From Candidatus Lokiarchaeum ossiferum (lineage in GTDB: Archaea > Asgardarchaeota > Lokiarchaeia > Sigyniarchaeales > Promethearchaeaceae): a stretch of DNA of 64,000 nt. Both the position numbers and the translations under genes were made by a program. The DNA is taken from assembly GCA_025839675.1 (NCBI GenBank), contig CP104013.1, forward strand, positions 3,233,121 through 3,297,120, in the 5' to 3' direction. Shown here piece by piece: positions 12,973 through 44,498 of this stretch. The notes under the pieces were generated by a model that worked only from the letters and a program-made list of their open reading frames with translations, was not told the origin of the DNA and did not search any database. Positions within the stretch are counted from its first letter, which is position 1. Each line of letters opens with the position of its first letter.

Positions 12973-14151
12973 ATGACTCAAAAAAAAGGTTCTAAAAACT
13001 ATTTAAAACAAAAAATCAGTGCTACCATTTTTTTAGCATGGATTTTATTCGGATTTTTTAGTGGATCCGCTCTTGGATACTTAATATTTCAAAATTCTGA
13101 TGATGATGTAATAAAACTTTCAATGGTTTATTCCAGCGAAAAATCAACTTGGATTTCGGAAACTGCAATACTTTTTCAAGAATTTTGGGAAGAAAAACGC
13201 GTGCAGGACAGTTCTTTAAAGAAAATTTCTTTGGATTTTCAGCCATATGGCTCGGGTGATTCATTAATTGCTTTATTGAATGGAGAAACAAAACCCACGA
13301 TCTGGTCCCCTGCATCTAACATATGGGTTCCATTACTGAACACCAAATGGAGCCAATATACATTAACTGATGATTTAATAGTACCAAATTTCACCCGTTT
13401 AATATATTCTCCTGTTGTAATTGCGACATGGGAAGATTTTTATGCAGAGCATTCATTTAATGGCCTAAATGATTTACACGATTTGATTGTGGATAACCCC
13501 GGTCTTATAAACATGGCTCATACTGATCCTCGATCATCAAATAGTGGTTTTATGGCAACCACCATGATGGTTAGTAGCTTTTTAAATATGGATCCTGAGC
13601 TAATGTCTGTTAATAACTTAACTCAAGAACCTTTACAAACTTGGATGTCAGAATTAGAGAGCGCCGCCATTTTTTATGGAAAATCTACAGGATTTTTAGG
13701 GAAATATATGCGAGATCAAGGGCCTGAAGCTCTTCAGGTTGCAATTCTTTATGAAAATCTTGTTCAAGATTATGGTCAGGAAGCCGAAGAACGATATGGA
13801 CAAAAAATTGTAGCGGTTTATCCTGAAGAAGGGGCTTTATTTAGCGATCATCCTTTTTGCATTCTGAATGCTGAATGGGTCTCGGAAGATCAAAGAATGG
13901 TTGCAGAAGAATATCTAAAGTTCATTAGTCAAAAAGAAATAATCACGAAAGCAATTGCCACTGGATTTCGTCCAATTAACACTGAATTTTTGAATGATCC
14001 AATCGTTCAAGAAGTATATAGCCAGTCTTTTAATGCAAACCATGGGGTAACCGCAGATCCAAGTATTATTATTGAATTACAACCCCCTGCTGATGGAACC
14101 GTAATTGGAAGAATTCCAGATTTATGGCTTTTAACTCGGAATTCAGTGTGA
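12973..14151 (+). CDS. ABC importer substrate-binding protein (N-terminal membrane anchor)
   Basis: N-terminal hydrophobic helix, size typical of an SBP, position directly upstream of the permease and ATPases. Substrate unknown. Confidence 0.45.
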   Translation: MTQKKGSKNYLKQKISATIFLAWILFGFFSGSALGYLIFQNSDDDVIKLSMVYSSEKSTWISETAILFQEFWEEKRVQDSSLKKISLDFQPYGSGDSLIALLNGETKPTIWSPASNIWVPLLNTKWSQYTLTDDLIVPNFTRLIYSPVVIATWEDFYAEHSFNGLNDLHDLIVDNPGLINMAHTDPRSSNSGFMATTMMVSSFLNMDPELMSVNNLTQEPLQTWMSELESAAIFYGKSTGFLGKYMRDQGPEALQVAILYENLVQDYGQEAEERYGQKIVAVYPEEGALFSDHPFCILNAEWVSEDQRMVAEEYLKFISQKEIITKAIATGFRPINTEFLNDPIVQEVYSQSFNANHGVTADPSIIIELQPPADGTVIGRIPDLWLLTRNSV

Positions 14152-15830
14152 TTATTATGGGAGAAAGAGAAAAAATGGAGAAAATTTTAATTAAACCAGA
14201 AAAATCTAATTCCTTATTATTGAAAACAGAAACAGAACTTTCGAAAAAGAAGTATAAAATTTTGTTAGAAGTTCTGGTTATCGGCTTTTTTATGATGATC
14301 ATTGCGGCCCCCATCATCAATATCATCAGCAATGTCATTGATAATATTGGTGAGATTCGGATCCGTTTATTTACCGACGAGTTACTCGGAGATTCTCAAT
14401 GGCAAATGATGAAATCAGCACTATGGGAATCGTTTTCAATAGCTTTTATCGCAGTCGGAATTGATCTTATAATAGGTTTCCCCATAGCAGTAATATTAAC
14501 CAGAGGAGAATTCAAAGGGAAAAAAATAGTTGATTTTCTCGTCGATTTACCAATGGCGGTTCCGACCTCAGCTCTTGGATTCTCAGTGATGCTTTTTTGG
14601 ACTATTTTTAATATCTTACCCGGAAGGACCCTAATTATTTTTGTTCATGTTGCCTTTACATATCCCTATATTGTTCGTAATCTAAAAATTGCAATTGAAA
14701 AAGTAAATCCTCTATTAGAAAAGGCAGCCATGACATTATCGGCTTCAAAATTAACCGTGCTGCGTACAATTTCGTTTCCGCTCATTCGAGAAGGGCTTAT
14801 TGCTGGCTCGATTCTTGCATTTACCCGTTCTTTAGGTGAAACGGGAGCGACCATGATTTGTGCAGGATTAGTTGAAACAGCCCCTATTTTGGTGGTAGGA
14901 TTACGCAAGCAATTGCAATTACCAACGGCATCCTTTTTATCTTTAGTACTTATTATAATTTCGTTGAGTTTGCTCTTAATTGTGAAATTGATTGCTCGTC
15001 GAGATACCACTACCAGAAAATTCTGGCAAATTCATTTTGATTGGGAAAAATATCTTTCCAAACCGGTTTTTTCACGAGGGGTCAAAATATTAGCAGTTAT
15101 TCTCATGATCATATTTGTATTAGTCCCTTCCTTCTATATCGTGTCCCAAATCAATCTAGCTAAAGTTCACGAAGAGTTATTTGATGTAGATAATAAATGG
15201 GCCTATCTTTGGGAATCGGTGGTAAATTCATTTCAAGTTGGATTTATAGTCATTGCGATTGATGTAGTCTTTGCAATTGCTTTTGCTTTCATTTTAACGC
15301 GCGAAAAATGGGGAAAAGCGAATGAAATCCTTGATGCAATTTTAGATATTCCATTAACCATACCAAGTGCAGCCTTAGGATTTGCAGTATTTATGTTTTG
15401 GGGTCCCGCAGGTATTAATATCGCAGAACCGGGACTTGGAATGATAATCTTTACACATCTTACATTTACTTTCCCTTATGTTGTTCGACCAATTGCGGCT
15501 CAGATTAAAAATGTAGATGTAGGACACGAAGAAGCCAGTGCAACTCTTGGAGCGGCCCCTTTGACAACTTTTAGAAGAATAACATTTCCAGCCATTAAAA
15601 ATGGAGTTATTGCGGGTATGATTGCGGCCTTTACCCGTTCTCTTGGTGAAACAGGTGCCACCCTCATTGTAATGGGAGCTGATCGGACAGTACCGGTCTT
15701 GATTGTTGATTGGGTTGAAGAGAATGCGTTTATTTCAGCCGCTTTCGCAAGTGTATTGGTAATCATTATCAGTGCCTTCTTACTTGCTCTCGTTCGGATG
15801 TTCACTCCCACCATAAAACAACGATTATAA
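14124..15830 (+). CDS. ABC importer permease with fused duplicated transmembrane domains (FbpB/ThiP-type)
   Basis: Two EAA-loop copies (FTRSLGETGATMICAG and FTRSLGETGATLIVMG) and about 12 predicted helices. Confidence 0.65.
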   Translation: MAFNSEFSVIIMGEREKMEKILIKPEKSNSLLLKTETELSKKKYKILLEVLVIGFFMMIIAAPIINIISNVIDNIGEIRIRLFTDELLGDSQWQMMKSALWESFSIAFIAVGIDLIIGFPIAVILTRGEFKGKKIVDFLVDLPMAVPTSALGFSVMLFWTIFNILPGRTLIIFVHVAFTYPYIVRNLKIAIEKVNPLLEKAAMTLSASKLTVLRTISFPLIREGLIAGSILAFTRSLGETGATMICAGLVETAPILVVGLRKQLQLPTASFLSLVLIIISLSLLLIVKLIARRDTTTRKFWQIHFDWEKYLSKPVFSRGVKILAVILMIIFVLVPSFYIVSQINLAKVHEELFDVDNKWAYLWESVVNSFQVGFIVIAIDVVFAIAFAFILTREKWGKANEILDAILDIPLTIPSAALGFAVFMFWGPAGINIAEPGLGMIIFTHLTFTFPYVVRPIAAQIKNVDVGHEEASATLGAAPLTTFRRITFPAIKNGVIAGMIAAFTRSLGETGATLIVMGADRTVPVLIVDWVEENAFISAAFASVLVIIISAFLLALVRMFTPTIKQRL

Positions 15831-15851
15831 TTAAAATAAAAATGATATAAC

Positions 15852-16991
15852 ATGCCAGATATAGTATTAGAAAAAGTCAGAAAAACCTTTGATCACGGGA
15901 AAGTAGTAGCCGTATCGGATGTGGATTTAGTGATTCATGAAGGGGATTTTGTATTCTTATTGGGTCCTAGCGGTTGTGGTAAAACAACCTTACTCCGGAC
16001 GATATCAGGACTAATTCAACCTACCATTGGAAATGTCCTAATAGATGGACAAGATGTAACCTTAGCCCCTCCTCAAACGCGAGGAATTGCATTTGTTTTT
16101 CAAAATTTCAACATTTTCCCCATTTCAGTCTTTGATAATTGTACTTATGCTTTAAATGTTCAAGGTTTTTCTAGAGAGTATATTATTCAACAAGGAGAAA
16201 AAGCATTACGTGTAGTTGGTTTAGAAGAACGTGGTGATGAAATCCCCATTGGATGGGGAAATGGAGATTTACAAAGATTAGGCATTGCTCGGGCAATTTG
16301 TAGCGGCGCAAAAATTTTAATTATGGATGAGCCATTGGGATCGTTAGATCCCAAAATAGGGGCAGAATTTCGCTGGGAACTTCGAAATATTATTAAAGAT
16401 CAACACTTAACTGCGATTCAAGTTACACACAATCAAGAAGAAGCCATGGCTATAGGTGATAATATTATTATTATGCGTGATGGTAAACTATTACAACAGG
16501 ATACCCCCGAACGTCTGTATAAATTTCCATCATCGATCTTTGTTGGCAACTTTTTGGGTGGACTTAATATTTTGGAAGGATATGTATCCCATATAGAGGG
16601 GAATAACTACTCAGTGAAAGTTCGATTAGGGGGTCCAAAATACATAGTATTTTCAAAAAACACGCAATTTCGATTGGATGAAAATGTGGTAATAGCAAGC
16701 CGTCCTGAAGATATTTACCTTTTTTCAGAAGACTATGACTATAAGGCATCCCAAGCCAATTGGGAGGGTATTTTTCTGGCGGATGCTGTCATAATAGAAA
16801 AATACTTGACTGGAAAGGAACGCCGATTTATCGTAGAATTAGATAATAGCGACACTTTGGATGTTGCTAAACCAGAAGTATTCAAATATGATTTTGAAAT
16901 CGGTGATGAAGTTAAAGTTGGAATTTTTGGTGAAGATCTTCGTATTTTCAAGTATCCTAAAAATCTCCAAAAAGAAATGGATTTACAATAG
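15852..16991 (+). CDS. ABC transporter ATP-binding protein (PotA/MalK-like, with a TOBE-like C-terminal domain)
   Basis: Walker A GPSGCGKTT, signature-like region and Walker B ILIMDEP. Confidence 0.7.
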   Translation: MPDIVLEKVRKTFDHGKVVAVSDVDLVIHEGDFVFLLGPSGCGKTTLLRTISGLIQPTIGNVLIDGQDVTLAPPQTRGIAFVFQNFNIFPISVFDNCTYALNVQGFSREYIIQQGEKALRVVGLEERGDEIPIGWGNGDLQRLGIARAICSGAKILIMDEPLGSLDPKIGAEFRWELRNIIKDQHLTAIQVTHNQEEAMAIGDNIIIMRDGKLLQQDTPERLYKFPSSIFVGNFLGGLNILEGYVSHIEGNNYSVKVRLGGPKYIVFSKNTQFRLDENVVIASRPEDIYLFSEDYDYKASQANWEGIFLADAVIIEKYLTGKERRFIVELDNSDTLDVAKPEVFKYDFEIGDEVKVGIFGEDLRIFKYPKNLQKEMDLQ

Positions 16992-17006
16992 GCTGATGAG
17001 AAAATC

Positions 17007-18248
17007 ATGGTAAAAATACGACTCGAAAATTTAAATTTCAAGAAGGATGGTGTCCAGATCCTTTCTAATGTAAATCTTACAATTGAAGATAAAGAATATG
17101 CAATTTTAGTTGGTCCCACAGGCGCAGGAAAAACGAGTTTGATTGGGCTTATCAGTGGTCTTTATACTCCAACATCGGGAAAGATTTATTTTGATGAAAA
17201 AGATGTGACTAAATTACCATCGAGTGAACGTCATTGCGGAGTAATGTTTGAATCATACGCGTTATTTCCTCATCTTCATATTTTGGATAATGTGAGCTAT
17301 GCTCGCCATATGCACGAATCGAATCACCAAGAGACTTATTCAATTTCCCAGGCAGTGTTGAACTTGGTTAGGTTATCAGACCGCGATTTTGCTTTGCCGA
17401 AGGAATGTTCGGGAGGTATGCAACAGAGAGTGGCACTAGCTCGAGCTATAATGGCATTGGAAGAAGGAGGAGTACTCATTTTGGATGAACCCTTCAAAGC
17501 TTTGGACGCGGGACTTCGTCTAAACCTTCGAAGAGAAGTAAAATCTATTGCAAAAAGCACTCAACTCAATCTTACCACGATCCATGTCACCAACGACATG
17601 CAAGAAGCGATGTTAGCAGATAAAATTATAGTTCTTGATCACGGTAAGATTCGCCAAATTGGGGCTCCAATGGAAATTATGTATTCTCCCATTGACCTCT
17701 TCGTTACCAATTTCTTTAGCACGGAATTAAATCACTTCTCAGGTAAAATTATCCAGAAAGAACCTGTACTTGAAAAAGGTTTTAAAAATGTTTCTCTGGA
17801 GAAGATCATTATCCAATCCGAAGAGGGGTATTTTCTCTATGCTAAAACAGAAAAAAATTTCGAGGTGGGAGATGAAGTCACTTTTCTTATCCGATCTCAA
17901 TATTTCAAATCGCGCCATAAAAGGCGAGATGACAAAGCGAATAAAATTGTCGGTAAAGTCAAACGAGCCAAATTTATGGGTGCTTGGCTTCGATTGGAGA
18001 TCGAAGCAAAATTTAAATATGAAAATTTCCCAGAATATGAAAAATCTTCTTCCCAAGCAGTTGTTTCAGCCAAAATAAAACTTGAAGCACCCAAGAAATT
18101 GATCAAAGTTGAAGTACCCACAACTCGGGTCGCCATACATAATTTTAAGGTAAATGAAACAGTCACGATTTACTTCCCAAGCGAGTATGTGATAGTATTC
18201 CCCCGAATTGCTTCGACCATTCTTGACTCCACACTCCGAATAAATTAA
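17007..18248 (+). CDS. Second ABC transporter ATP-binding protein
   Basis: GPTGAGKTS Walker A, LSGGMQQR signature and LILDEP Walker B. Sits in tandem with the first ATPase. Confidence 0.7.
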   Translation: MVKIRLENLNFKKDGVQILSNVNLTIEDKEYAILVGPTGAGKTSLIGLISGLYTPTSGKIYFDEKDVTKLPSSERHCGVMFESYALFPHLHILDNVSYARHMHESNHQETYSISQAVLNLVRLSDRDFALPKECSGGMQQRVALARAIMALEEGGVLILDEPFKALDAGLRLNLRREVKSIAKSTQLNLTTIHVTNDMQEAMLADKIIVLDHGKIRQIGAPMEIMYSPIDLFVTNFFSTELNHFSGKIIQKEPVLEKGFKNVSLEKIIIQSEEGYFLYAKTEKNFEVGDEVTFLIRSQYFKSRHKRRDDKANKIVGKVKRAKFMGAWLRLEIEAKFKYENFPEYEKSSSQAVVSAKIKLEAPKKLIKVEVPTTRVAIHNFKVNETVTIYFPSEYVIVFPRIASTILDSTLRIN

Positions 18249-18361
18249 CCCAAGATGTCAACTTTTTTAAAATTTAATTATATTATAAAATAAACTACCA
18301 GGTGATATGAATTTCACTCAAAAATTTCCTACAAGACCGAAATAATGCAAATACTTTAGAA

Positions 18362-18991
18362 ATGGCTATTGCCCATATGCAAAAAACCCTTGAAACCGTG
18401 GTTGAATTTGAACGTGGATTTACCATTTATGTCGAAGAAAAAAACCCGACACTTGCCTTAGAGATTTTTCAACGAGTAGACCAATTAGAAAATGAAGCAG
18501 ACACTTTGCGTCGGGATATTTTAATGCATATTGCACAAAGTGAACTTTCTCCTCAAATGCGAGAGGATTTATCTCATTTAGTAAAACGTATTGATCGAAT
18601 TGCAAATACAACGGATGGAGCGGCACGAAGAATATCTGGAATAAATCATGAACACTTTGCAGCTCTTGGAGATAATATATTAGCTAAGATGGTTGAAATC
18701 ATCCGCTTATCGGTTGAAGCCACAAAAATTCTGTTCAATCTAATTAAGAAAATGGATGATATGTTGAATCGCGAAACCTTTCGTGTGTGCGAAAAAATTC
18801 AACACATCGAACATAAATGCGATCAGTTGCATTCCACTATCTATGAAATGTTAAATAAACTTGAACTCGCGCCATTCAATCACTTTGTAGCGATTCAAAT
18901 TTCCAATTTCGTCGATATGATCGAAACAATTTCCGACAAAGTAGAAGATGTCTCCGATTATATTGAAGTTTTAAAAACAGCTAAACGGTAA
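18362..18991 (+). CDS. DUF47/PhoU-like helical regulator
   Basis: About 205 aa, all-helical, with paired repeats typical of PhoU-like/DUF47 proteins. Adjacent to a transporter. Confidence 0.35.
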   Translation: MAIAHMQKTLETVVEFERGFTIYVEEKNPTLALEIFQRVDQLENEADTLRRDILMHIAQSELSPQMREDLSHLVKRIDRIANTTDGAARRISGINHEHFAALGDNILAKMVEIIRLSVEATKILFNLIKKMDDMLNRETFRVCEKIQHIEHKCDQLHSTIYEMLNKLELAPFNHFVAIQISNFVDMIETISDKVEDVSDYIEVLKTAKR

Positions 18992-19008
18992 CAAAGGTTA
19001 GTTCATCA

Positions 19009-19938
19009 ATGGTCAAGCGCAGCAACAAGATTTTTTCTTTTTTCCTTATATTCATTTTTGTTCTATCAACAACAGGTTTGGGTTATTATTACTTCATCTA
19101 TGAAGCGGAACCAAATACAATATCGAAGCCTAAGCAATATTTTGGATTGGGTGGATGGAGCTATGAGTTTGATGAAAATACGTCGCAAGAAATCATTAGT
19201 TCCTGCTTGGCGAAGAATTGGACATTTCTACTAATATCTATCAATACTCATGAATTAAACCAATCTCACTCCCAATATTCCTCGCAATCAGAAACTAAAG
19301 CGCTTGATCTTATTAAACAAGCTCATGAGGAAAATATTTCCATTCATATCATGACTTTAGAAGACCCGGTCTTTTGTGAACGCGCTTTTCATGATAATGC
19401 CCTTCAACGTATTAGTGAAATTTTGGCCTTCAACACAAAATATCCGCGCACGCCCTTTGATGGGATCCATCTTGATGTGGAACCCCATGGTCATCCAAAC
19501 TGGAATAGTACCGCGTCTTGGACTGAAAAAAATTTAATTTTTGAGCACTGGTTGGAATTACTTTCAAAAATTCGAGTTTTACTAGATGATTATAAAGCGG
19601 ATTATGAATGTGTGCCAGTATTGTCTGCTGCTGTCGCCTATTGGTACAATGAACGAACTATAAATAATTCCCTTGAACGAGGAGACCCCACAACATTGCA
19701 CTCTTACTTAGACGTTATTATCCCAATGGTCTACGGAGGAATTGGAAAGACTGCTGAAGATATTTATGCCAAGATTGAGGATGAACTTCCTTATTCACCC
19801 ATGGTCATTGGTATTGGGTATGAGGAATTTTCTTCGCACTCCGCTATGTTGGAGACCATTGCAGCATTTTCGTTGAAATGCGAAAATTCCACGAATTTTA
19901 TAGGAATTTCAATCTATCACGCATCTTTGATTGAATAG
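19009..19938 (+). CDS. Membrane-anchored hypothetical protein, possibly a TIM-barrel glycosidase-like fold
   Basis: N-terminal TM helix. GIHLDVEPHGHP-type acid motif. No secure family match by eye. Confidence 0.2.
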   Translation: MVKRSNKIFSFFLIFIFVLSTTGLGYYYFIYEAEPNTISKPKQYFGLGGWSYEFDENTSQEIISSCLAKNWTFLLISINTHELNQSHSQYSSQSETKALDLIKQAHEENISIHIMTLEDPVFCERAFHDNALQRISEILAFNTKYPRTPFDGIHLDVEPHGHPNWNSTASWTEKNLIFEHWLELLSKIRVLLDDYKADYECVPVLSAAVAYWYNERTINNSLERGDPTTLHSYLDVIIPMVYGGIGKTAEDIYAKIEDELPYSPMVIGIGYEEFSSHSAMLETIAAFSLKCENSTNFIGISIYHASLIE

Positions 19939-20043
19939 TCGTTAAAATGAAATTATCAGATGAAAATGCCTCCTTAATAGATTTAATTCCCTAAAACCGT
20001 CAATAAAACCATCTGTAAAATATGCAGTCAAAATAAATGAAAG

Positions 20044-20094
20044 AGACCATTTCCGACAAGGCTGAAGATGTCTCAGATAATGGTGAAGATTTTT
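20044..20094 (+). pseudogene. Decayed duplicate of the 3' end of the DUF47/PhoU-like gene
   Basis: The stretch atttccgacaaggctgaagatgtctcagataatggtgaag (20047..) matches atttccgacaaagtagaagatgtctccgattatattgaag (18937..). The fragment translates to TISDKAEDVSDNGEDF*, versus the intact gene's ETISDKVEDVSDYIEVL. Confidence 0.45.
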
Positions 20095-20202
20095 AAACTG
20101 CTATAAGGTAATAACAGAGAATAATAAGAATGCAACAAAAAACTGAATCTGATCTAGTGAATCCTTATTATCAAAGCTCATCTAATGTATTCATATTTTT
20201 CA

Positions 20203-23200
20203 TTATTTTTTTCCATTCAAAATTTTCCAGAGATTTTTATAATCTTCTCCTTTCATTTTACTTTTTTTCTTGGGATCTATCCACTTAGAAGATTCTAGAT
20301 CACTTAACCAATTTACTACCTCGTATGAATTAACATCATATATTTTTTTATTGCTCTTACAATATATTTTACCTATTCTATTTGCAATAGTTCGCGGTAC
20401 ATTATTAATTCTCATCAGTATTCCTTCGTCAGTATTCACACCATAGTATATCATTGCTGGTAAATTGCTAAGTTTTCTTTGCTCATCGATAGACATCAAC
20501 TGCCTATCTTTATCATTATAGGTTAACTTTTGAATTGAGGATAAACCCCAAGTTGATAAATTAATAATCTTACTATATATTACAGAAATACATTTTGTTA
20601 TTGAATTTATATCTATACCACTGAAATGTAAATTAGAAATCTCATCAATTTTTTTACCACCTACCCAATCATTTATTATACTTGCAATATATGAGCCTTG
20701 TCGAAACTCATCAGCTTTTATAGAGTTCAAATCTTGACTAATTTCAGGAATTTTATCAATCATTATACCAACCATATCTGCTAAAACTCCACTCTCACTT
20801 GAAAAAATATGACTACTTGTCCAGTCTATCTCCTTTAGGTTTTTATCTTTTACTGATTTTAATGTCTTCTTAATTGTTTCTGGACAAAAACCTGTTAAAT
20901 CCGATAATTTTGCTATTCCTTTGTTTTTATCTAATTTCATTACATATTTTTCAACTGCTTCTAATAATACTTCTTTTTTCTCTTCCTCAAGTTGTCTATA
21001 TCCATACGTAGAATTTAAAGTAATTTCAAGATTTGAAAGAAAATTGCTTAAAGAATCAGCTTGATTATACATATGGGAAATATATTGAGCAAATGTTGAC
21101 CATTCCGGAAGGTAAGTAAAATCTTGTAATTCTTTGTTTTCGCCTAAAGCAATGAATTCATTTACCATTTTTACCAAAATGGATATTATTGCTTTGATGG
21201 ATTCATGAATAAATTTTGATGCTTTAATTTTCTCCTTATCATTTGTTACTATTATACCGACTGTACCTATAATACTTTGATATATTCGACCAACTCTACC
21301 AGTTAAATTCATGAAATCTGACGCAGGCATTGTTTTATATGGGTAAGAATAAGATGCCATGATTATGGATGAAACAGGAAAATTTATTCCTGCTACTATT
21401 GTCGTGGTTGATATGAGTATACTCAAATCATTATTTTTCATTAACCATTCCATTAAATATCTTATTTCATCTGGAAGACCAGCATGATGAATCCCAATCC
21501 CTTTTTCAAGAAGTTTTATTAATGGAAATTTTTCACTTATCTCATCACTTATATAGTTCATTACAAGAGATGTGTTCGCGGAATTTTTTTTCTTTTTAGG
21601 TAAAACTTGATAAAGCTCTTCAGCAAGCTTCCATGTACTATCTTTAGTTTTTACCGTAATTATAATATTCTCATTGTTTTTCTTCTTCTCTATGACTTTC
21701 TGAGCGATATATGAACTCAAAATATATTTTGTATTTTTATATTTTGAAAAAGGGTATTTTGAATGAGTTTCTTCACTTAATTTTATTTTACTCTTTATTT
21801 TTATCTTTTTATCGCTAGTTATTTTTGGTTCAAAATAGCTACTTACATTACGTTTTGATCCTTCAATACTATATAAACCAATTATACTCTGATTTGGTTG
21901 CCAATCCATTTGAATTTTTATTGAACGAGGGTTTTGTGGATCAAGCCATTCGGCAATCTGATGATTATTTGGGATAAAAGGTGTTAGAAGTAGAAATCTA
22001 TTTTTTGGGCAATCCCTCATTATCACAGATAAGAGTAACTCCAAGTTCAGCCCCCTTGTTTCATCTCCAATATTATGAGCTTCATCGATAATAGTTAATA
22101 CAAGATTTCTCTGTAGATTTTTCTCAATATCCTGTCTTACCAACAAACTAAATTTTTCTGGGGTTGTCACTAAAATATCAAAGAAATTTCTTTGATTGAT
22201 TAAATTATCTTCAAAAGAATCAATTTCCAAAGCCCCACTCATCTTTTCAACCTTTATTGAGAGTGGTTCAATACTTAAATCTCGTCTTAAATCATTTGTT
22301 ACTTGATTAACGAGAGTTCTTGTAGGTACAATATATGCAATCCAGCCCTTTTCTTCCGCAAATTGATTTAAAGCTTGGAGAATTCTAAACTTCGCAATTA
22401 AAGTTTTTCCACTCGAAGTTGGCAGATTAACAACAATTGCTTTGCTAACTGGGTTTAATAGTCCTTGTTCTAATAATGCAATTCTCTGAGGATACATGAA
22501 TTCATAAATTGGTTTAGAGGATTCTGGATTTGTTAGGATATTCGCATATTTTGAAAAACGTGAATTAATTCTATTTGCTGTATACCAAATTGAATTGAAA
22601 ATCATTTTTTTATATGTTAAATGGATTAACCTTTGAAGATAATTAAGATCTTGAAGTTGTCCTTTTTCACTATGAATTAGAGAATTTTTTTTATGAAACT
22701 CTAGTGTTTCGATAATATTTGGAGGTTTACCATGTGTCAAATATAAGGAAATTAATTCCGTTGATTTAGCAAGATGATATAGTGATGCTAGCTCATGCGC
22801 AGATTGGAATTTTTGATTTTCTGGCTTGTTATCAAGATAATTTCTTTCAAACTCGTGTTGATTTTTTCTGAGTTCAACTATCATATCAATTGATTTGCTT
22901 AAATCTTCCCATGTGTTTTTTTTAATTAAATAAAAAAAAGAATGAAAAATAGTATAAAATAATTTTTTATCCCATTTCTCCTCTTCATCTAAGTTAAAAA
23001 TAATTTTTGATTCATTTTTTGTTAGGTATCTTTGAATATCTTCCCATTTTTCCCCTAAATATGCGTATGAGGCAAGTTTAATAATAAATTTAATCTTTCT
23101 TAATGGTTTTTCTGGTATTGGCAATGTTTCCATTAATTTAAATTGATCAAAACATAATTTGGAGAATTTCTCTTTTTCAACATTTCTCTCATCTTTAGTT

Positions 23201-23418
23201 TCAAAAGCAAAATTCCAATTTTCTATAATGGCAAATTCATTTATAAAGATTAAGTTCTCAATTGATTTCAATTCTGATATGGAAAGTTGTTTTTGTTCAT
23301 TAAAATTATTGTAAATTTGCTTTTCTTTAATTATCTGGAACATTTTTATTTCTTCAGACTCATTTTTCAAATTTAAAATTTTAAAATTTTCAGCTTCCAT
23401 CTGGATTTTCTCCATCAT
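20203..23418 (-). CDS. SF2 DExH helicase (Ski2/Hel308-like core), HamB-like candidate
   Basis: Motif I LPTSSGKTLIA, Ia IVPTRTLVNQ, II IIDEAHNIG (DEAH), V ISTTTIVAGINFP and VI NLTGRVGR. An N-terminal region of about 330 aa and a C-terminal region of about 330 aa lack recognisable helicase motifs. The start overlaps the upstream gene's stop by 29 nt. Confidence 0.6.
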   Translation of the reverse strand: MMEKIQMEAENFKILNLKNESEEIKMFQIIKEKQIYNNFNEQKQLSISELKSIENLIFINEFAIIENWNFAFETKDERNVEKEKFSKLCFDQFKLMETLPIPEKPLRKIKFIIKLASYAYLGEKWEDIQRYLTKNESKIIFNLDEEEKWDKKLFYTIFHSFFYLIKKNTWEDLSKSIDMIVELRKNQHEFERNYLDNKPENQKFQSAHELASLYHLAKSTELISLYLTHGKPPNIIETLEFHKKNSLIHSEKGQLQDLNYLQRLIHLTYKKMIFNSIWYTANRINSRFSKYANILTNPESSKPIYEFMYPQRIALLEQGLLNPVSKAIVVNLPTSSGKTLIAKFRILQALNQFAEEKGWIAYIVPTRTLVNQVTNDLRRDLSIEPLSIKVEKMSGALEIDSFEDNLINQRNFFDILVTTPEKFSLLVRQDIEKNLQRNLVLTIIDEAHNIGDETRGLNLELLLSVIMRDCPKNRFLLLTPFIPNNHQIAEWLDPQNPRSIKIQMDWQPNQSIIGLYSIEGSKRNVSSYFEPKITSDKKIKIKSKIKLSEETHSKYPFSKYKNTKYILSSYIAQKVIEKKKNNENIIITVKTKDSTWKLAEELYQVLPKKKKNSANTSLVMNYISDEISEKFPLIKLLEKGIGIHHAGLPDEIRYLMEWLMKNNDLSILISTTTIVAGINFPVSSIIMASYSYPYKTMPASDFMNLTGRVGRIYQSIIGTVGIIVTNDKEKIKASKFIHESIKAIISILVKMVNEFIALGENKELQDFTYLPEWSTFAQYISHMYNQADSLSNFLSNLEITLNSTYGYRQLEEEKKEVLLEAVEKYVMKLDKNKGIAKLSDLTGFCPETIKKTLKSVKDKNLKEIDWTSSHIFSSESGVLADMVGIMIDKIPEISQDLNSIKADEFRQGSYIASIINDWVGGKKIDEISNLHFSGIDINSITKCISVIYSKIINLSTWGLSSIQKLTYNDKDRQLMSIDEQRKLSNLPAMIYYGVNTDEGILMRINNVPRTIANRIGKIYCKSNKKIYDVNSYEVVNWLSDLESSKWIDPKKKSKMKGEDYKNLWKILNGKK

Positions 23419-24232
23419 CCATTATTATTTGTTCTAGGCTTTTAATACTAAAAGGCAAGTAACAACCAATTAATTCAAGAACCATTTTTTTTTTTATAAT
23501 GCTATTTAATTTTTTAAATCGTTTTTCCAAATCCATTTTATTTGGATTGACATCTCTTATTAAAATTCCGACTATTTTATATCCACATTTGTCTGTTTCT
23601 AAGAAATATTTTAAAGCTCGAAAATAATTTTTTTTTAACTCATTATTAATGTTCAAATTAGTTGTTTTTATCGCTATGGTTCTAATTAAGTTATTTACAA
23701 CTTCTTTTTCCTCTATCAAATCTGTAAGCTGACCTTCCAATCCAGATTTTCCATAAACTACATTAGGAGGATATTTATCTGAAGAAGATGTTTTAACTTC
23801 ACCAAATAGAAACATAATAGATGATTTACCATGATTATGAAAGCCTACAATATCTGCACCTTGAATATTTGCATTTATATTCCTTGCATCATCTATATTG
23901 TCATAATAGAACTTGGCATTTCTTTCCTCTTCTAAAAAGCATTTTGCCAATGTTTCACCAATTTTCCAGTCTTTAGGTTTAAGATTGCTTGTAAATATAT
24001 CGGAAAGATTATTAACAGAAAAACCTGTTGAATCTAGCCCAAATTCAATCCAATTTTCTTCATGATCTTGTATAATTTCATTAGTACTTTCCACCGAAAA
24101 ATATTTTTCTTTTACGGTTGTTTTAACATAATCTAAAATATCATTCTCTTCAAATTCTACTCCAAAATATAATGAATCATTATTCTTTTCTTGATATACA
24201 ATCTTATAATTATTTAATCCATTAGTTACCAT
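23390..24232 (-). CDS. HamA-like (DUF1837-type) protein with a PD-(D/E)xK-like nuclease motif
   Basis: GADIVGF followed 17 residues later by LFGEVKT, i.e. D...(E)xK spacing. 280 aa, translationally coupled to the downstream helicase. Confidence 0.4.
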   Translation of the reverse strand: MVTNGLNNYKIVYQEKNNDSLYFGVEFEENDILDYVKTTVKEKYFSVESTNEIIQDHEENWIEFGLDSTGFSVNNLSDIFTSNLKPKDWKIGETLAKCFLEEERNAKFYYDNIDDARNINANIQGADIVGFHNHGKSSIMFLFGEVKTSSSDKYPPNVVYGKSGLEGQLTDLIEEKEVVNNLIRTIAIKTTNLNINNELKKNYFRALKYFLETDKCGYKIVGILIRDVNPNKMDLEKRFKKLNSIIKKKMVLELIGCYLPFSIKSLEQIIMDDGENPDGS

Positions 24233-24583
24233 AATAATTCCACATTTTTCTGCCTTTTCTAATAAATAATCTTAGAGTTATCTTTAATTAAAAGAACTTT
24301 TTCGTTTTTAGTAAAAAGATATTTATCTAAACTTTGAGTCAATTTAATATATATTCATATCTTGATACTTATAAACATACATGTAAGTATGAGAATTCAA
24401 CTTTTTTCTTGAAATACTGTATAATCATTTTTTATTCGGATGATTATCGATTGATTTAAGGATTCTATCTTATGAATTGTAATTGATCTGAAATTCCTGT
24501 TTTATTTTTAAAATTTGATACTAACTTAATTTAAATTTTCTATAAGATGGTAAGGCTCAATTTTGGTTTATTTTAATAAATGA

Positions 24584-24790
24584 AAAAAAAATAAGATTTA
24601 TAGTTTCCTAAATGCTCAATTTAAGAGTTTTAGCGAAGAAAAAACCTATTTGGAACAATTTAAAAAAATATTAGCAATTTCAAATAAGATCTCTCAAACA
24701 CAAATAGCAGATATGATGAATATATCTGAAAAACAATTGTTGTCTCTGCTAATGAACTGGAGTGATACCATTTCGTTCAAAAGTAAGTGA
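24584..24790 (+). pseudogene. Start-less gene fragment encoding an HTH-like C-terminus
   Basis: An open frame with no initiator runs from the stop codon at 24581-24583 to the stop at 24788-24790. It reads ...EEKTYLEQFKKILAISNKISQTQIADMMNISEKQLLSLLMNWSD... and contains the 39-bp repeat. Confidence 0.3.
24635..24673. repeat. 39-bp perfect direct repeat, left copy (gaagaaaaaacctatttggaacaatttaaaaaaatatta)
   Basis: Identical to 29135..29173, exactly 4500 bp away. Confidence 0.9.
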
Positions 24791-24889
24791 AAGAAAATTT
24801 TTTCAATATATTTTGAAAGGAAGGATGGCAAGATGAATTTCAACTCTCACTTCGAAAATTATTTATAGGTATTCATTAGATACTCTCCC

Positions 24890-37355: not shown

Positions 37356-40300
37356 ATGAAACCAAAAAAATTAATCTTCATCTTTTTTGTAGGAATCCTC
37401 ATGGTCCCCATCTTCCCCCAAGCGCAACTTTCCTTCGCAAGTGCAACGGTGGGTCAAAGTAATGGAGTCTGGGAAATAACCTATAATACTGATGATAGTG
37501 CAAATGTTGGTCCACTCTATGATGCCAACGGATATACTGCAATTTCCGAGTTAGATCCTGCAAGTTCAACCAATACATGGTACGATTATTCCCCATTAGA
37601 AGCAGGACATCAAGAATTAGACTTTGAATGCAATATCAAATTTGAAAATGGAGGTCGGAAACACATTTATCTGTATTTGGATAACGATCCCTCCCAATAT
37701 TTCCTACTGCAATATGAAAATGGGGATGTGTTTTCATACACTACAGATAATTGGGTAAAACAAAGCCAAAATATGGATTATAGTTATAATACTTGGCTGT
37801 CGTTTCAGTTAGAACTGATTCAAACCAGCTCCACCACAAAATTATTAACCGTAACTTTAGGAACCGATTCTTTTTCGATCGAACTGGATAGTGACAGTAC
37901 TGTTGACGCACTCAAAATGCGCACAATGACGGCCGGAAGTTCCGTCTTCTTTTCTGACGTCGAAGTGTCTTATTTGGAGGAATCCTGGCAAAGAATTTAT
38001 CCTGCGGAAAGCTCTGCATCTGCAATACCCCTTAATGATGAAACGGACGATGGACAGCTGTATTCAGATATTTATGAATTGGAGATGGACGTGGGACTGA
38101 ATACGTGGTATGAATATACCAAATCGGGAATTGAATACAATTTCTTGCATTTTGATTGCAATTTGAAATTTCTGGATGGAGGAGCTAGAAAATGGTATTT
38201 TTATTTTGATGATGGGGCTTATTTCATTATCAACTTCGAAAATCAATGGATCAGATCATATGTTTCGAATGCTGACGTGCCAAACTGGGTTTCTCAGAGG
38301 TCTTACGGCTATGGGGATTGGAATCATATCGAATTTGATATCGTTCAAAAGAATTCTGTAACGAAAGAATTAAAAATGAGCATAAATGGGCTCCCATTTA
38401 CTTATCCTGTCCTTATGTCTAGTGGATTCAATGTGAAAATTGAATACTTAAGAGTGCGTCTTCAAACTAGCGGAAGTCTTTTGATTTCCGATATGGCAGT
38501 CGATAATGATCAGGATGGATTGGATGAGGTTGAGGAAGCTATGCTAGGGTCTGATCCTCTCCTTAAAGATACTGATGGCGATTTTGCTTATGATGGGGAA
38601 GAAGCCTCTATCTATGGAACGGATCCAACGGTTCCCGATGAGGCAAATGGTTTTACACTGATCTATCCAGAAGGTGGTCCAGGCAGAGTTGATATTTCCA
38701 CAGATTCATCTACCGGTTCAAAGATATATCAGCTAAATTCGGAAGGTTCATCTAATACTTGGTTTCAACATCGATTGAATGGCCTAAGAGCTCAATCTGT
38801 CGGATTTCATTGTAAAATAAAAGTGCATGATTCTCAAGAAAAATACTTGTACTTCTATTTTGACGATGGTGATTATTTCATAGTTCGATTTATTAATCTA
38901 CATCTCTATACCACCTATATTCATAATGGGGTTGGCAACGGGTGGAGGGATCAGTATATTTATTATGGGGACCAGGATTGGTTGGATTTATCAATCACTA
39001 TTACTGGAGGACCCAATATCAAAACATTAGATGGATCTTTAGATGGAAATCCCTTTGATGATTCCGAATTCATGTATTCGAAAGGTGTTTTTGACAAGCT
39101 TAAAACCCGCCAAACTGGAACGGATAATTTGTGGAGTTTCACGGAGTTTATGATTGATTCGGATTTGGATGAGTTATCTGATGTAGAGGAACTTGATTTA
39201 GGCACCGACCCGACGGATGCGGATTCGGATGGGGATGGGTTAACCGATGGAGAAGAAGTCAATAATCATGGCACTAACCCTCTAGTGGCGGATTCGGATG
39301 GTGATAAATTTTCTGATCTCCTCGAAATTCGTGGGAAATTAAATCCTATGGATCCCAGCGATGTATTTACAGATGAATGCACCCTTGGAGGTTATGTTCC
39401 AAGCGAATGGGTGATTCCAAGCTCAGATGTGGGCATCCAAGCAATACCAAATGATTGGGATGATACTAGTTATTTAAGCGACAATTTTATGCTCTCTATC
39501 AGTCCCACATATCGGCACGATTCTCGCAGTATAGAAATTCCATTACAACAACTAGATGTCATGGAAAATTTTGCATTTTCATGTTATGTTGGGCAAAATT
39601 GGTTAGGAGGTGAAGAATCATGGCAAATTTATATTAAAGATACTTCAGGAAAAGGTTTTGCTTTGAACTATAAAGGTGATCAATTCTACATTAGTGATAC
39701 TACACTTCTTTCTTTCAGCTCGGATATTATTCAAGTACCTAATCCAAATAAAATTATGCATGAAATGAGGATAACCTTAAAATTTGTTGGCGATCATACC
39801 GATATTTTCCTATATTTTGCAGATACTTCAATGGGTAACTACTCCATCGAGATGGGAAAAATGTTATCCAAAATCATTGTTACTCGAACAACGACTTTTA
39901 ATACTCCTGAGATACCCTCCTTTGGATTTGATAATTTTAAAATAATCCAATGGAAATGGCCTTATTATAAATTGATGGAAACTTATCCTTCTAATGAAGG
40001 GAGAGATGGGCATTTAACCATTAATAACGTCCAAAAAGGCGTTGGTAAAGGACCTGGGTTCTATGAAATAATGTCCTCTGTCGATTTTGATCGGAATTGG
40101 AATGATGATGGTTTGGAAGGGATGCACTTGGATGGTTCTTTTTGTGATACAGGTTCCTTCAATTTTGTTTCTCATGCAAAATTATTTGATATATTCGGGA
40201 CTGGAATTACCCAACCTCAATCAAGTATAACTAAAATGGAACTTGATTTAAAGATCAATGGTCCTGATGGTCCTATCGATTTATCTACAGCAAATGGAAT

Positions 40301-40841
40301 CAGTAATCTAATAGATCCATACTTAATTAACATGATTGAAAATTTGGACACTATTACAGATTTAAATGAGGTTACTGAAATTCTTGAAGGAGTTGGGACA
40401 CTCTACCAAGTAACAGAACAATTATTAGATATGTATGATACCGTACCTGAATCACTTCAAGATGTTTTGGGACCAATTTCCCTGGTTATGGATCTTGTGG
40501 GTTTTTATTCTGAGGAAAATACACCACATCCCGAGTGGACTTGTGATACATTAGATAATGATCCTTATACCTATCAAGTCAAATATGACTTTGATTTCGT
40601 ATCTGGAGTTTCTTGGGGTAGTACAAATTTTGCTATGGGATTTAATTTAAATTTTTACGAAGTAATTGAACATCTTGAAGAAACAATGGATATTGGTGAC
40701 AGATACACTTTTACGATAACTCAAAGAACATTCTTGACTGGGATTTCCTATAATTGGATCTTTGGAAGATGGGAAGAATCCACAGAAATTATGGTTGAAG
40801 ATACTTTTAAATTTGAACTCACATCCACCGATTCTTTTTAG
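37356..40841 (+). CDS. Giant secreted protein with three roughly 190-aa jelly-roll/LamG-like repeats separated by Ca-binding DxDxDG (TSP3-like) linkers
   Basis: Signal peptide MKPKKLIFIFFVGILMVPIF. Internal repeats carry NTWY.Y...FDCNLKF..GG.K.Y.YFDDG.YF. DTDGDF, DSDGDGLTDGEE and DSDGDKFSD motifs. Confidence 0.55.
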   Translation: MKPKKLIFIFFVGILMVPIFPQAQLSFASATVGQSNGVWEITYNTDDSANVGPLYDANGYTAISELDPASSTNTWYDYSPLEAGHQELDFECNIKFENGGRKHIYLYLDNDPSQYFLLQYENGDVFSYTTDNWVKQSQNMDYSYNTWLSFQLELIQTSSTTKLLTVTLGTDSFSIELDSDSTVDALKMRTMTAGSSVFFSDVEVSYLEESWQRIYPAESSASAIPLNDETDDGQLYSDIYELEMDVGLNTWYEYTKSGIEYNFLHFDCNLKFLDGGARKWYFYFDDGAYFIINFENQWIRSYVSNADVPNWVSQRSYGYGDWNHIEFDIVQKNSVTKELKMSINGLPFTYPVLMSSGFNVKIEYLRVRLQTSGSLLISDMAVDNDQDGLDEVEEAMLGSDPLLKDTDGDFAYDGEEASIYGTDPTVPDEANGFTLIYPEGGPGRVDISTDSSTGSKIYQLNSEGSSNTWFQHRLNGLRAQSVGFHCKIKVHDSQEKYLYFYFDDGDYFIVRFINLHLYTTYIHNGVGNGWRDQYIYYGDQDWLDLSITITGGPNIKTLDGSLDGNPFDDSEFMYSKGVFDKLKTRQTGTDNLWSFTEFMIDSDLDELSDVEELDLGTDPTDADSDGDGLTDGEEVNNHGTNPLVADSDGDKFSDLLEIRGKLNPMDPSDVFTDECTLGGYVPSEWVIPSSDVGIQAIPNDWDDTSYLSDNFMLSISPTYRHDSRSIEIPLQQLDVMENFAFSCYVGQNWLGGEESWQIYIKDTSGKGFALNYKGDQFYISDTTLLSFSSDIIQVPNPNKIMHEMRITLKFVGDHTDIFLYFADTSMGNYSIEMGKMLSKIIVTRTTTFNTPEIPSFGFDNFKIIQWKWPYYKLMETYPSNEGRDGHLTINNVQKGVGKGPGFYEIMSSVDFDRNWNDDGLEGMHLDGSFCDTGSFNFVSHAKLFDIFGTGITQPQSSITKMELDLKINGPDGPIDLSTANGISNLIDPYLINMIENLDTITDLNEVTEILEGVGTLYQVTEQLLDMYDTVPESLQDVLGPISLVMDLVGFYSEENTPHPEWTCDTLDNDPYTYQVKYDFDFVSGVSWGSTNFAMGFNLNFYEVIEHLEETMDIGDRYTFTITQRTFLTGISYNWIFGRWEESTEIMVEDTFKFELTSTDSF

Positions 40842-41249: not shown

Positions 41250-44200
41250 ATGAATCAAAAAAAAAGACTGCTATCGTTATATGCGTTGCTTCTTTTGACC
41301 TGTTCCGCCTTAATATATACTAATATGGGAACTGGGGTCGCAGAAATCAATATTTCAGAATGGACAAATGTGCCAAATTATGGTCCTTCGGAATTATCCA
41401 ATTTCATGGATGAAGATCGAGGGGAGGTAATGAAAATATATGATGCCGGATGGGGATTAGTCCAAAAGGATATAATTCCGCAATATATTGCAGGAAACAA
41501 AATTTGGTATTCCTATTGCGTGAAAGTAACTGGTGGGGAATCGAATGATTATGGGGGGGTGAATTTAAGCCCATCTACCATCAACACTGGGGCCGTAGGA
41601 ATGCGAATTCATGCGGGAACGAGTTTAAAATATTGGCTTGGAGATGGACAAGAGCATGATACATTCATTGACGTAGAAACAGATCAATGGTACCACATAG
41701 GATGTTCATATGAGTCTGATGGTCAATTCGAAGCATATTTGGATGGGGAGATGATCCTTTCAGAACAAGCCAAGCCTATCAGCAATTTAAATTATGTTTA
41801 TGCTGCAACATGCTCCCAATCAACTTTTCTGGATGATATCTATGTTGGAGTTTCTAAGGATGAAGCATTTAATAGTTTCCAAGATGAAGTAACTACCATA
41901 CTAATTGATGATTTTTCGGAAGATTCGATTGGGTTTTTACCCTTAGATTGGGAACTAACTGCAGGCGGATATTCATCTTTTAGAACTGTAGAACTAGCCG
42001 AATCTCCATATGATCAGGTTTTAAGAATCTATGATTATGGACAAATTCCCACCGTATACTCAAAAGTGGAAAAAAAAATTCCCGCTGGTTTTGGATCTAT
42101 TGAATGGGATTTAAAAACAGATTCACCAGGAAATAATAATGGTTATTTCGGATTGATGGAAGGGGATAATTGGTTGATATCGATTGGGATAATAAATAAT
42201 CAATTCAGAGTTTATTACCACAATGATCATGCTTCGTATAGTGTCTACGACACAAACGTTGTTGCTTCAAATCAATGGACCCACCTTAAAATGGAGTATG
42301 ATGGCGAGCAAGATGATTGTCGAATATTTGTTAATGGGGTTGAGGTAAGAAGTACACCATTCAATACAAAATATGCCTCTTTTGTTGATGGTCTATATTT
42401 ACACTCAGGAGAAACTGGATCTGGAAAAAGTTATTATGACAACATTCAAGTGAACTGGGTAAAACAGCGTGTGGATTCTTTTATGGAATATGCTGGCATT
42501 ATCAATTTTGATGATAGTTACAATCAAGATCCTCTAGCAAGCTGTCAAGAATGGTCTTCCGATGTTAATTCGGGCTATCAAATCCTAGATGCAGTGACCA
42601 CACACTCAAGTGTATTGGCAATAACCGATTTAGTTTCTTCTTCGAGCTGCTTTACAAAACTAAACATTAATACTCCTTTAGGGGTTGGAGGCTGTGTAGA
42701 AGGATGGATATCTGGATCGAGTATCATAAATAATGCGTATATGGGCATTAATTTTGGGGATAATTACTGGTTATTGTCCGTGGGGATCAATAATGGTCAT
42801 TTTAAAGTTTATCATCGAACGAGCTATTCAACATATAGTACCGCTGTTTCTACCATAGAAGCAAATCCAAATCAATGGTATTTTGTTTGTTTATATTATG
42901 ATGGTATGTCTGATATTTGTACTGTATCGATAAATGGTGTTACTATTGGACAATATAGTCTTTATGACGTTGCTGGAATTACATCAATATATCTCCATTC
43001 GGGAGAAAATGGGGGGGGTACAAGTTACTATGACTCAATTTCGTATGATTGGGCAAATGAATATGATGCAGGAGATGCAAGAATAATAGACTTCGATAGG
43101 GACCATTTAAGCCACAAGTATGAAGAGACCCATATTTATGAATCTGGATTAAAAACTTCTCCTTGGAAATGTGATTCTGATAATGATAGGGTAAATGATT
43201 GGGATGAAATCTGTGGTATCTACGGATATATTACTGATCCAACTCGGATTGACTCTGAACCGATTGGATCTGAAGATGGGCTGAATGATTATTTAGAATT
43301 ATTTAGATATCATACCGATCCAACTCACTATGATTCTGACCGTGATGGGCTGACTGATGGAGATGAAGTCAACTTATATGGCACCGACCCGACCACGGCG
43401 GATTCGGATGGGGATGGGTTGACCGATGGGGAAGAAATAAATGGGTATGATATGATGTATCTAGACGAGCTTTATCATGAACATAAATATGCAACATATT
43501 ATACAAATCCGCTTCTTGTTGATTCAGATAATGATAATTGGAGTGATAAGCAAGAACTTGATTTGATACAAGCTGATTTAGATCAAATTCATGAACCTAA
43601 TCCTGCGGTAGATAACTATCGGTATTTAGATCCAATGTGCCGAGATAGTGATTTAGATTTTCTTCCCGATGGATGGGAAGAATATTATGGACTCGATCCT
43701 TGTGAATATAATTCAGAGCTGGAATTAATCGAAAACAATGTTCCTGATATATATTATTTCTTTGCGCCAATTCAAGAACCAGATCAAGAACGGGTCTCGG
43801 GATTGCGAATTGCCTTGATATTCATTAATCCAGACATAGTTTCGCCAAGTTGGGCAAATTATTACTCTCGAGTCTTCGATAAGCTAAATTATGATGTAGT
43901 GCATGTTTATACAGGTTACACCCGAAATCAGTTTTATAATGAATTGTATCAGTGGACACCCCTTATTCAAGCGGATGATGAATTATTTATAATGATCCAA
44001 GGACATGGGCTGGTGGAGGACAATGAAGAAGAAACTCCGTTGGCGTATTTCACTCTTTATGATGACGATGAGGTGTTTGACCAGGATGTTGGTGAAATTT
44101 CGGGACAAGAGTTTTTAAATCGATTGAAGTTATTTAGTGCCTACAGGAAATGTGTGTTTTTTGATACCTGTTTCGCTGGAAAAGTGCTTGAAAATTTCGA

Positions 44201-44498
44201 TTCGGAAATAACTAAAGTCTTTCAAACTACTGATGCCACCCACGCACAGTATAGAACAGTCAGCAAATTTGATAAGATTATGCAGAATGCTAAGTGGGAG
44301 AAAAGAAATACTTATGTTGCATCATTTTTCTGGGATACTTTAGGTGCAACCACTCTAAGTGAAGATCCAATTTTCAAATATATTCAGGCGGATTTGGCAT
44401 TTGGTTCTCTTTTACCGTGGAGTCGAACGGGTTATCAAGGAGGAACTATTTTGAATCCGGGCTGGAATTATTTGGAACGTTATAATATATTTGTCTAA
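41250..44498 (+). CDS. Giant secreted LamG/jelly-roll protein with TSP3-like Ca-binding repeats and a C-terminal caspase-like peptidase domain
   Basis: Signal peptide. WYHIGCSYESDG.FEAYLDGEMI is LamG_3-like. DSDGDGLTDGEE is present. The C-terminus has LFIMIQGHG ... KCVFFDTCFAG. Confidence 0.55.
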   Translation: MNQKKRLLSLYALLLLTCSALIYTNMGTGVAEINISEWTNVPNYGPSELSNFMDEDRGEVMKIYDAGWGLVQKDIIPQYIAGNKIWYSYCVKVTGGESNDYGGVNLSPSTINTGAVGMRIHAGTSLKYWLGDGQEHDTFIDVETDQWYHIGCSYESDGQFEAYLDGEMILSEQAKPISNLNYVYAATCSQSTFLDDIYVGVSKDEAFNSFQDEVTTILIDDFSEDSIGFLPLDWELTAGGYSSFRTVELAESPYDQVLRIYDYGQIPTVYSKVEKKIPAGFGSIEWDLKTDSPGNNNGYFGLMEGDNWLISIGIINNQFRVYYHNDHASYSVYDTNVVASNQWTHLKMEYDGEQDDCRIFVNGVEVRSTPFNTKYASFVDGLYLHSGETGSGKSYYDNIQVNWVKQRVDSFMEYAGIINFDDSYNQDPLASCQEWSSDVNSGYQILDAVTTHSSVLAITDLVSSSSCFTKLNINTPLGVGGCVEGWISGSSIINNAYMGINFGDNYWLLSVGINNGHFKVYHRTSYSTYSTAVSTIEANPNQWYFVCLYYDGMSDICTVSINGVTIGQYSLYDVAGITSIYLHSGENGGGTSYYDSISYDWANEYDAGDARIIDFDRDHLSHKYEETHIYESGLKTSPWKCDSDNDRVNDWDEICGIYGYITDPTRIDSEPIGSEDGLNDYLELFRYHTDPTHYDSDRDGLTDGDEVNLYGTDPTTADSDGDGLTDGEEINGYDMMYLDELYHEHKYATYYTNPLLVDSDNDNWSDKQELDLIQADLDQIHEPNPAVDNYRYLDPMCRDSDLDFLPDGWEEYYGLDPCEYNSELELIENNVPDIYYFFAPIQEPDQERVSGLRIALIFINPDIVSPSWANYYSRVFDKLNYDVVHVYTGYTRNQFYNELYQWTPLIQADDELFIMIQGHGLVEDNEEETPLAYFTLYDDDEVFDQDVGEISGQEFLNRLKLFSAYRKCVFFDTCFAGKVLENFDSEITKVFQTTDATHAQYRTVSKFDKIMQNAKWEKRNTYVASFFWDTLGATTLSEDPIFKYIQADLAFGSLLPWSRTGYQGGTILNPGWNYLERYNIFV

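Follow-up and report, generated by a model that had tools for sequence, protein, structure and literature searches.

A 64-kb stretch of the 6.03-Mb contig of Candidatus Lokiarchaeum ossiferum (hereafter the window, in whose own numbering all coordinates are given) carries two adjacent, co-oriented genes, NEF87_002761 and NEF87_002760, which we call genes A and B and consider here as a candidate defence module of the Hachiman (HamAB) kind. An earlier note, made from the letters alone, had described open reading frames (ORFs) of 280 and 1071 amino acids (aa) at this locus, and both are present exactly where it placed them; the NEF87_002761 product is 100% identical to the 280-aa ORF. The pair is laid out as follows.

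23390 to 24232, minus strand: gene A (NEF87_002761), 280 aa, a HamA-like PD-(D/E)xK nuclease, PADLOC PDC-M23A, with predicted catalytic residues E93, D127, E145 and K147
20203 to 23418, minus strand: gene B (NEF87_002760), a HamB-like, Ski2-type superfamily 2 (SF2) DExH helicase, PADLOC PDC-M23B, longest ORF 1071 aa
23390 to 23418, minus strand: overlap of A and B, 29 nucleotides (nt) if B starts at its first ATG; 23390 to 23400, 11 nt, if it starts at M7

The overlap had been put at 29 nt, which holds only for a start at the first ATG of gene B. The NCBI call places the start at M7 (position 23400, giving 1065 aa), a GGAG lies 9 nt 5′ of M7 in the sequence, and an overlap of 11 nt is likewise found in archaeal relatives from Methanofastidiosia and Nitrosotalea (loci L086 and L088), while one further locus, L001, has an overlap of 1 nt. 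For these reasons M7 is likely to be the true start of gene B, and the 11-nt overlap is better supported than the longer one. With either start, the overlap implies co-transcription of A and B and probably also coupled translation.

Homology and predicted structure of the two proteins

Profile searches assigned both proteins, over their full lengths, to a single PADLOC family. Gene A matched PDC-M23A (PDLC04527) with an E value of 5.3e-70, aa 9–272 aligning with positions 6–260 of the 263-position profile, and gene B matched PDC-M23B (PDLC04531) with an E value of 0 and 1167 bits, aa 19–1069 aligning with positions 12–1059 of 1060. The two genes also have the order (A then B), orientation and adjacency of that family, and the pair is almost certainly a PDC-M23/HamAB homologue. 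PADLOC took up the PDC entries as phage defence candidates on the strength of guilt-by-embedding predictions, and among them PDC-M23 corresponds to cassette CAS_00096, FAM_02460>>FAM_00699 (Payne et al., bioRxiv 10.1101/2024.01.29.577857); the family is itself a prediction only.

The link to Hachiman is clearest for gene B, which matched more than 20 HamB profiles, the best of them (HamB1) with an E value of 2e-63 and 212 bits over aa 187–998, well past the helicase core. Among PDB sequences, gene B matched HamB (8vx9_B) with an E value of 6.6e-28 and Hel308/Ski2-like helicases with E values down to 2.5e-42. The motifs from which it had first been recognised as a DExH SF2 helicase, GKT, DEAH and GRVGR, were located at aa 337, 445 and 707 and are intact and invariant. 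In the structural model an all-helical N-terminal region of about 300 aa is followed by alternating strands and helices at about aa 325–725, where the helicase motifs lie, and by an all-helical C-terminal region. The model superposes on HamB over nearly its whole length, HamB-specific extensions included, and it contains the N-terminal α-helical bundle that forms the HamA-binding domain of HamB and is lacking from other Ski2-like helicases.

Gene A carries the PD-(D/E)xK-like dyad that had drawn attention to the 280-aa protein, with GADIVGF at aa 125 and GEVKT at aa 144, and residues E93, D127, E145 and K147 are invariant in an alignment of 46 family sequences. By motif, rather than by a residue-by-residue comparison of the superposed structures, these residues correspond to the published D-E(x)K motif of HamA, in which the E138A/K140A mutant loses defence (Tuck et al. 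2024, PMC12278908). Structure comparison, which the earlier note had proposed as a check, showed that the gene A model superposes on HamA over nearly its whole length and so has the three-dimensional fold of HamA. Database records for this exact protein contain a precomputed PF08878.17 match and the UniRef name 'Anti-bacteriophage protein A/HamA', and the archaeal relatives L086 and L088 carry a 'HamA (weak)' record. Within the A family, the Pfam HamA profile was weakly matched by 8 of the 46 members, below threshold and at best with an E value of 6.6e-5, and the PADLOC HamA1 profile was weakly matched by seven.

We compared the pair with the characterised systems that it most resembles. Hachiman HamAB of E. 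coli ECOR31 (PDB 8vx9 and 8vxy) is likewise a two-gene operon in which a small nuclease comes first and a large Ski2-like helicase second. The Lokiarchaeum proteins are only 11% (A) and 16% (B) identical to these solved proteins, in keeping with the high divergence already remarked upon. Motif II reads DEAH in gene B and is reported as DEGH in E. coli HamB, and the OB-like barrel described for the latter was not seen in the secondary-structure string of gene B, whose modelled C-terminal region is all-helical. AbpAB of E. coli (PDB 8zue), a Hachiman variant, has an AbpA of 531 aa, which joins an N-terminal Cap4-like nuclease to a HamA-like domain whose catalytic residues are inactive (Tuck et al. 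2024, PMC12278908). By contrast, gene A encodes a single, unfused HamA-like domain that retains its catalytic residues, and membership of AbpAB was rejected.

Archaeal Hel308/Hjm and the eukaryotic helicases ASCC3, Slh1 and Brr2 have the helicase core and adjoining domains in common with gene B, about 550–600 residues being alignable. However, Hel308/Hjm and Ski2-like helicases lack the N-terminal helical bundle of about 300 aa and most of the C-terminal extension of gene B, have no partner nuclease, and are housekeeping proteins that are vertically inherited. Similarly, the cleavage domains of the type IIS restriction endonucleases FokI, PaqCI and N.BspD6I share only the catalytic core with gene A, which has additional HamA-specific elements and no DNA-recognition domain.

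Distribution of the pair and its place in the chromosome

To describe the family we sampled one genome per species, which gave 199 loci with relatives of gene A; the best 80 were kept and, with one further contig, made up a set of 81 loci. A full-length gene B followed gene A directly and on the same strand in 77 of them, the remaining four being no more than about 1.5 kb from a contig end. The hosts included Bacteroidota, Proteobacteria, Myxococcota, Verrucomicrobiota, Planctomycetota, Cyanobacteria, Chloroflexota and Acidobacteriota, among others, as well as one metagenome-assembled genome (MAG) of Methanosarcinales. Overall, the pair is scattered patchily through bacteria of many phyla and archaea of several lineages. 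A type I restriction-modification operon encloses the pair in 14 of 77 bacterial loci, in the order hsdM-hsdS-A-B-hsdR (L005, L011, L016, L017, L018, L024, L033, L036, L041, L045, L047 and others), which independently reproduces the type I restriction-modification embedding by which PDC-M23 was defined. In a Nitrosotalea MAG the pair adjoins an OLD-family ATPase and a type I restriction-modification system, and on one other contig a Fic gene lies directly 3′ of gene B. No third gene was conserved across the 77 loci, in which only restriction-modification subunits recurred, in a minority. Unlike these embedded copies, the Lokiarchaeum pair does not lie within another defence system. One separate observation concerns L018, in which hsdS is fused to a nucleotidyltransferase domain.

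The family is small, a large profile search over 1.84 billion representatives having recovered 638 clusters (50% identity). It was matched once in 2.9 million viral contigs and not at all in PLSDB plasmids, and nothing indicates that known mobile elements carry the module. The closest relatives of the Lokiarchaeum copy are 37–40% identical in A and 45–49% in B, the maxima being 40% and 49%. Those that are named include Woesearchaeota, Methanofastidiosia, Nitrosotalea and Thermococci MAGs, and also Firmicutes; no named Asgard relative was found among the best 120 B homologues listed.

The locus had been described as having no neighbouring housekeeping context, which proved to be mistaken. Its left flank consists of an ABC-transporter operon (12973–18248) and a DUF47/PhoU-like gene (18362–18991), both syntenic in related Promethearchaeota contigs. 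Three such contigs (L082, L083 and L084) share the flanking genes and have neither A nor B at the locus. In L083 and L084 (DUF47 72% identical) the genes within about 1.2 kb after DUF47 correspond to window positions 58920–63587. In L082 (DUF47 76% identical) an element corresponding to 49432–49548 lies about 0.46 kb after DUF47 and is followed by genes corresponding to 51472–53170. Positions 18995–49430 of the window (about 30 kb) are thus absent relative to L082, and about 40 kb (to 58919) are absent relative to L083, the missing part being flanked by DUF47 on one side and by the tRNA-Ile / 207-aa gene on the other. The stretch 18995–49430 is lineage-specific, and the A-B pair sits at its left end, downstream of DUF47. 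The rest of it consists mostly of unknown ORFs and of genes for three giant TSP3-repeat proteins (37356–40841, 41250–44498 and 45231–48029), the second of which also has a Laminin_G_3 domain. We found no integrase or recombinase among the tested ORFs of at least 120 aa in this island (19–49 kb), and no att-like repeats.

Within the lineage-specific stretch, the pair occupies a segment of its own, listed here with the features at its two ends.

20115 to 24889, no strand: segment of deviant composition, GC 0.273 (window mean 0.341), carrying only A and B
20037 to 20114, plus strand: decayed DUF47 3′-end duplicate, a copy of the last 24 codons and stop codon (18917–18994)
24233 to 24889, no strand: AT-rich intergenic region 5′ of gene A, GC 0.24, right end of the low-GC segment

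Among the 28 ORFs measured, the lowest GC belongs to genes A (GC 0.267; GC at third codon positions, GC3, 0.164) and B (GC 0.283, GC3 0.210); the gene at 52385–53179 alone comes near them in GC (0.286) and matches B in GC3 (0.208). Given the absence of the pair from syntenic loci, its deviant GC and GC3, and the lack of any relative above 49% identity, horizontal acquisition is a better account of the locus than a housekeeping operon. Their composition and the low identity of their relatives suggest that A and B were probably acquired separately from their surroundings, from a low-GC donor that was possibly another archaeon, and the segment 20115–24889, of about 4.8 kb, is the probable unit of transfer into the L. 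ossiferum chromosome, inside the larger lineage-specific region.

Interpretation as a probable Hachiman-like defence module

In our view, the pair is best explained as an intact antiviral module made up of two genes, Hachiman-like in kind and representing a divergent subtype (PDC-M23), and we put the probability that it has a Hachiman-like defence function at about 0.7. This reading, which the earlier note had put forward from gene order, protein sizes and strand coupling, is supported by the homology and fold of the two proteins, by their intact catalytic motifs, by the strict pairing of A with B, by genomic associations of a defence type and by the lack of the pair in syntenic relatives. By analogy with the E. 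coli system we infer complex formation, a trigger, DNA degradation and an antiviral function in Lokiarchaeum. In E. coli, HamA is held in a 1:1 complex with HamB and is kept inactive by the helicase's N-terminal helical bundle, and Hachiman responds to DNA damage (Tuck et al. 2024, PMC12278908). The product of gene A would accordingly be the effector, a DNA nuclease with the HamA fold, and that of gene B the sensor, a HamB-type Ski2-like DExH helicase. The two proteins would associate 1:1, with A restrained by the N-terminal helical bundle of B while intact double-stranded DNA is being surveyed. Aberrant DNA arising from infection or damage, such as free 3′ single-stranded ends, might then engage the helicase, whose ATP-driven activity would switch on the nuclease, and the resulting indiscriminate degradation of DNA would abort the infection.

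Several observations weigh against this reading. The check proposed in the earlier note, a search with HamA and HamB profiles, bore it out for HamB and for both PDC-M23 profiles; the HamA side was marginal, gene A matching PADLOC HamA1 with an E value of 0.027 over aa 74–149 only and giving no match at E≤1 in a Pfam scan that included PF08878.16 (HamA/DUF1837). Gene A is as distant from E. coli HamA as noted above, a Foldseek search of gene A against the PDB found nothing, and a profile of the A family gave only chance matches against PDB sequences. There is no defence island here, as the neighbours in the 19–49 kb interval are unknown or surface proteins and none gave another PADLOC match. 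A literature search turned up no experimental report on any member of PDC-M23. Finally, a recent PADLOC-based defence inventory of strain B35 names viperin, restriction-modification/DrmD, two Pycsar systems, Gabija, a type IIG restriction-modification system and 'Prometheus', and the pair is not mentioned in its text and searchable supplements.

Considering these points, the pair might instead belong to a nuclease-helicase defence system that shares the ancestry and fold of Hachiman and differs from it in trigger, substrate or outcome, for example by targeting invading DNA without abortive infection or by cooperating with type I restriction-modification, in which case PDC-M23 would rightly be kept separate. 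PADLOC does list it as a separate candidate family, gene B scores 1167 bits on PDC-M23B and 212 bits on the best HamB profile, and the marginal HamA profiles, the low identity to the solved proteins and the recurrence of the pair inside type I restriction-modification operons all point the same way. Moreover, Hachiman systems are diverse, comprising three types, and defence behaviour already varies between those of type I and type III that have been characterised (PMC13064477). Against such a difference, the superposition of A and B extends over nearly the whole of HamA and HamB, down to the HamB-specific extensions, the catalytic motifs of both proteins are conserved, and no further component accompanies them from locus to locus. 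We regard a different mechanism as unlikely, though by no means negligible. The 'unclassified nuclease-helicase system' that the earlier note had offered as an alternative holds in part, and as a matter of nomenclature only, in that PADLOC files the family apart from Hachiman.

A role in housekeeping DNA repair, in which a Hel308/Hjm-like paralogue and a dedicated nuclease would act at stalled forks or damaged DNA, could draw on the DNA-damage responsiveness of Hachiman itself. It would predict vertical conservation at the syntenic position, whereas the three related Promethearchaeota contigs lack the pair there; a conserved Hel308 paralogue with a syntenic partner, the case that had been named as a refutation of the Hachiman proposal, is thereby excluded. 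The patchy phyletic distribution, the missing named Asgard relatives among the B homologues listed (the nearest homologue being 49% identical), the deviant GC and GC3, the embedding in restriction-modification operons elsewhere, and the alignment of Hel308-type proteins over only about 590 of 1071 residues also argue against it, and we judge it extremely improbable. A relic of horizontal acquisition that has lost its function or expression in Lokiarchaeum would agree with the very low GC of the pair compared with the host, with the decayed gene fragment that adjoins the pair and with the pair's absence from the published B35 list (text and searchable supplements), for which proteome detection was reported. 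However, both ORFs are uninterrupted and align with their profiles from end to end, every invariant catalytic residue is kept, and so is the conserved 11-nt overlap, making a relic very unlikely.

The Hachiman-like reading adds one probable defence system to the few recorded for L. ossiferum B35, which is among very few cultured Asgard archaea. Hachiman itself is well characterised, PDC-M23 was already catalogued, and the protein encoded by gene A already carries an automatic HamA-domain label. Since Hachiman belongs to the systems that Leao et al. (2024, PMC11291487) list as occurring more often in Asgard genomes than in other prokaryotes, a Hachiman-like locus in this archaeon is not surprising, and the earlier view that archaeal Hachiman is uncommon conflicts with that list. 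The structural evidence that PDC-M23 is a divergent Hachiman (HamAB) subtype supplies the family with a mechanistic hypothesis and a set of point mutants; beyond this link and the addition to B35, little changes. It is conceivable, although we think it doubtful, that PDC-M23 is a distinct, as yet unrecognised type of Hachiman with an archaeal sub-lineage (Lokiarchaeum, Methanofastidiosia, Nitrosotalea, Woesearchaeota and Thermococci) that shares the 11-nt overlap and is active in an Asgard archaeon. If so, the system would have to survey an Asgard host genome, its trigger or outcome could differ from those of the E. coli systems, and it could become the first Hachiman-type system to be studied in a close relative of eukaryotes, given that L. 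ossiferum grows in culture and that there is now a virus of a sister strain to work with.

Neighbouring features

The intergenic region 5′ of gene A (24233–24889) presumably holds the promoter of the A-B operon. A scan for bacterial promoters and terminators returned 39 sites against 32 ± 4.8 expected and no terminators, but it relied on bacterial consensus sequences and is uninformative for an archaeal host. The same AT-rich region contains a 46-aa ORF (24650–24790, plus strand) with a TTG start, divergent from gene A, whose sequence ...ISQTQIADMMNISEKQLLSLL... resembles a helix-turn-helix by eye and has no Pfam match; it may be a regulator, a gene fragment or a chance ORF.

On the other side of the pair, the decayed duplicate of the DUF47 3′ end that had been reported beyond the helicase gene is real. 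Positions 20037–20114 are 77% identical to 18917–18994 over 78 nt (blastn E value of 2e-11; local score 66, shuffles 21 ± 2.4) and carry an in-frame stop codon. The duplicate lies 88 nt past the stop codon of the helicase gene, at the left edge of the low-GC segment and hence at the junction between that segment and host-like DNA. Only a 309-aa ORF (19009–19938), of host-like GC and with no Pfam match, separates the two DUF47 ends, and the window contains no third copy. The duplicate was probably left by an insertion or rearrangement at the 3′ end of the gene and is not part of the defence system itself. We compared the flanks of both copies with L082 and L083, in which the intergenic sequence is too diverged to tell original from copy. 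At its other end, the DUF47 gene has a conserved N-terminal extension (SLKNFLQDRNNANTLE, 18311–18361) in frame 5′ of the called ATG, in which an Ile codon stands right after a stop codon where orthologues have Met. The orthologues are about 226–230 aa long, compared with 209 aa for the called product both here and in L082; either translation begins at a non-canonical start codon or the N-terminus is gone.

The right boundary of the stretch absent from L082 is an unannotated tRNA-Ile(GAU) gene (49434–49541, minus strand) with a non-canonical D-arm intron of about 26–37 nt and an encoded 3′ CCA; no partial copy of it was found in the window. ARAGORN and Rfam, the latter at its gathering threshold, both miss the gene, and deleting the intron in silico makes ARAGORN call tRNA-Ile(gat). 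Its exons hardly differ from those at 8016–8132 of L082, while the intron varies. Just past this tRNA, a gene for a small GIY-YIG protein (51472–51765) and the HFX_2341_N-domain gene at 52385–53179 are conserved with L082.

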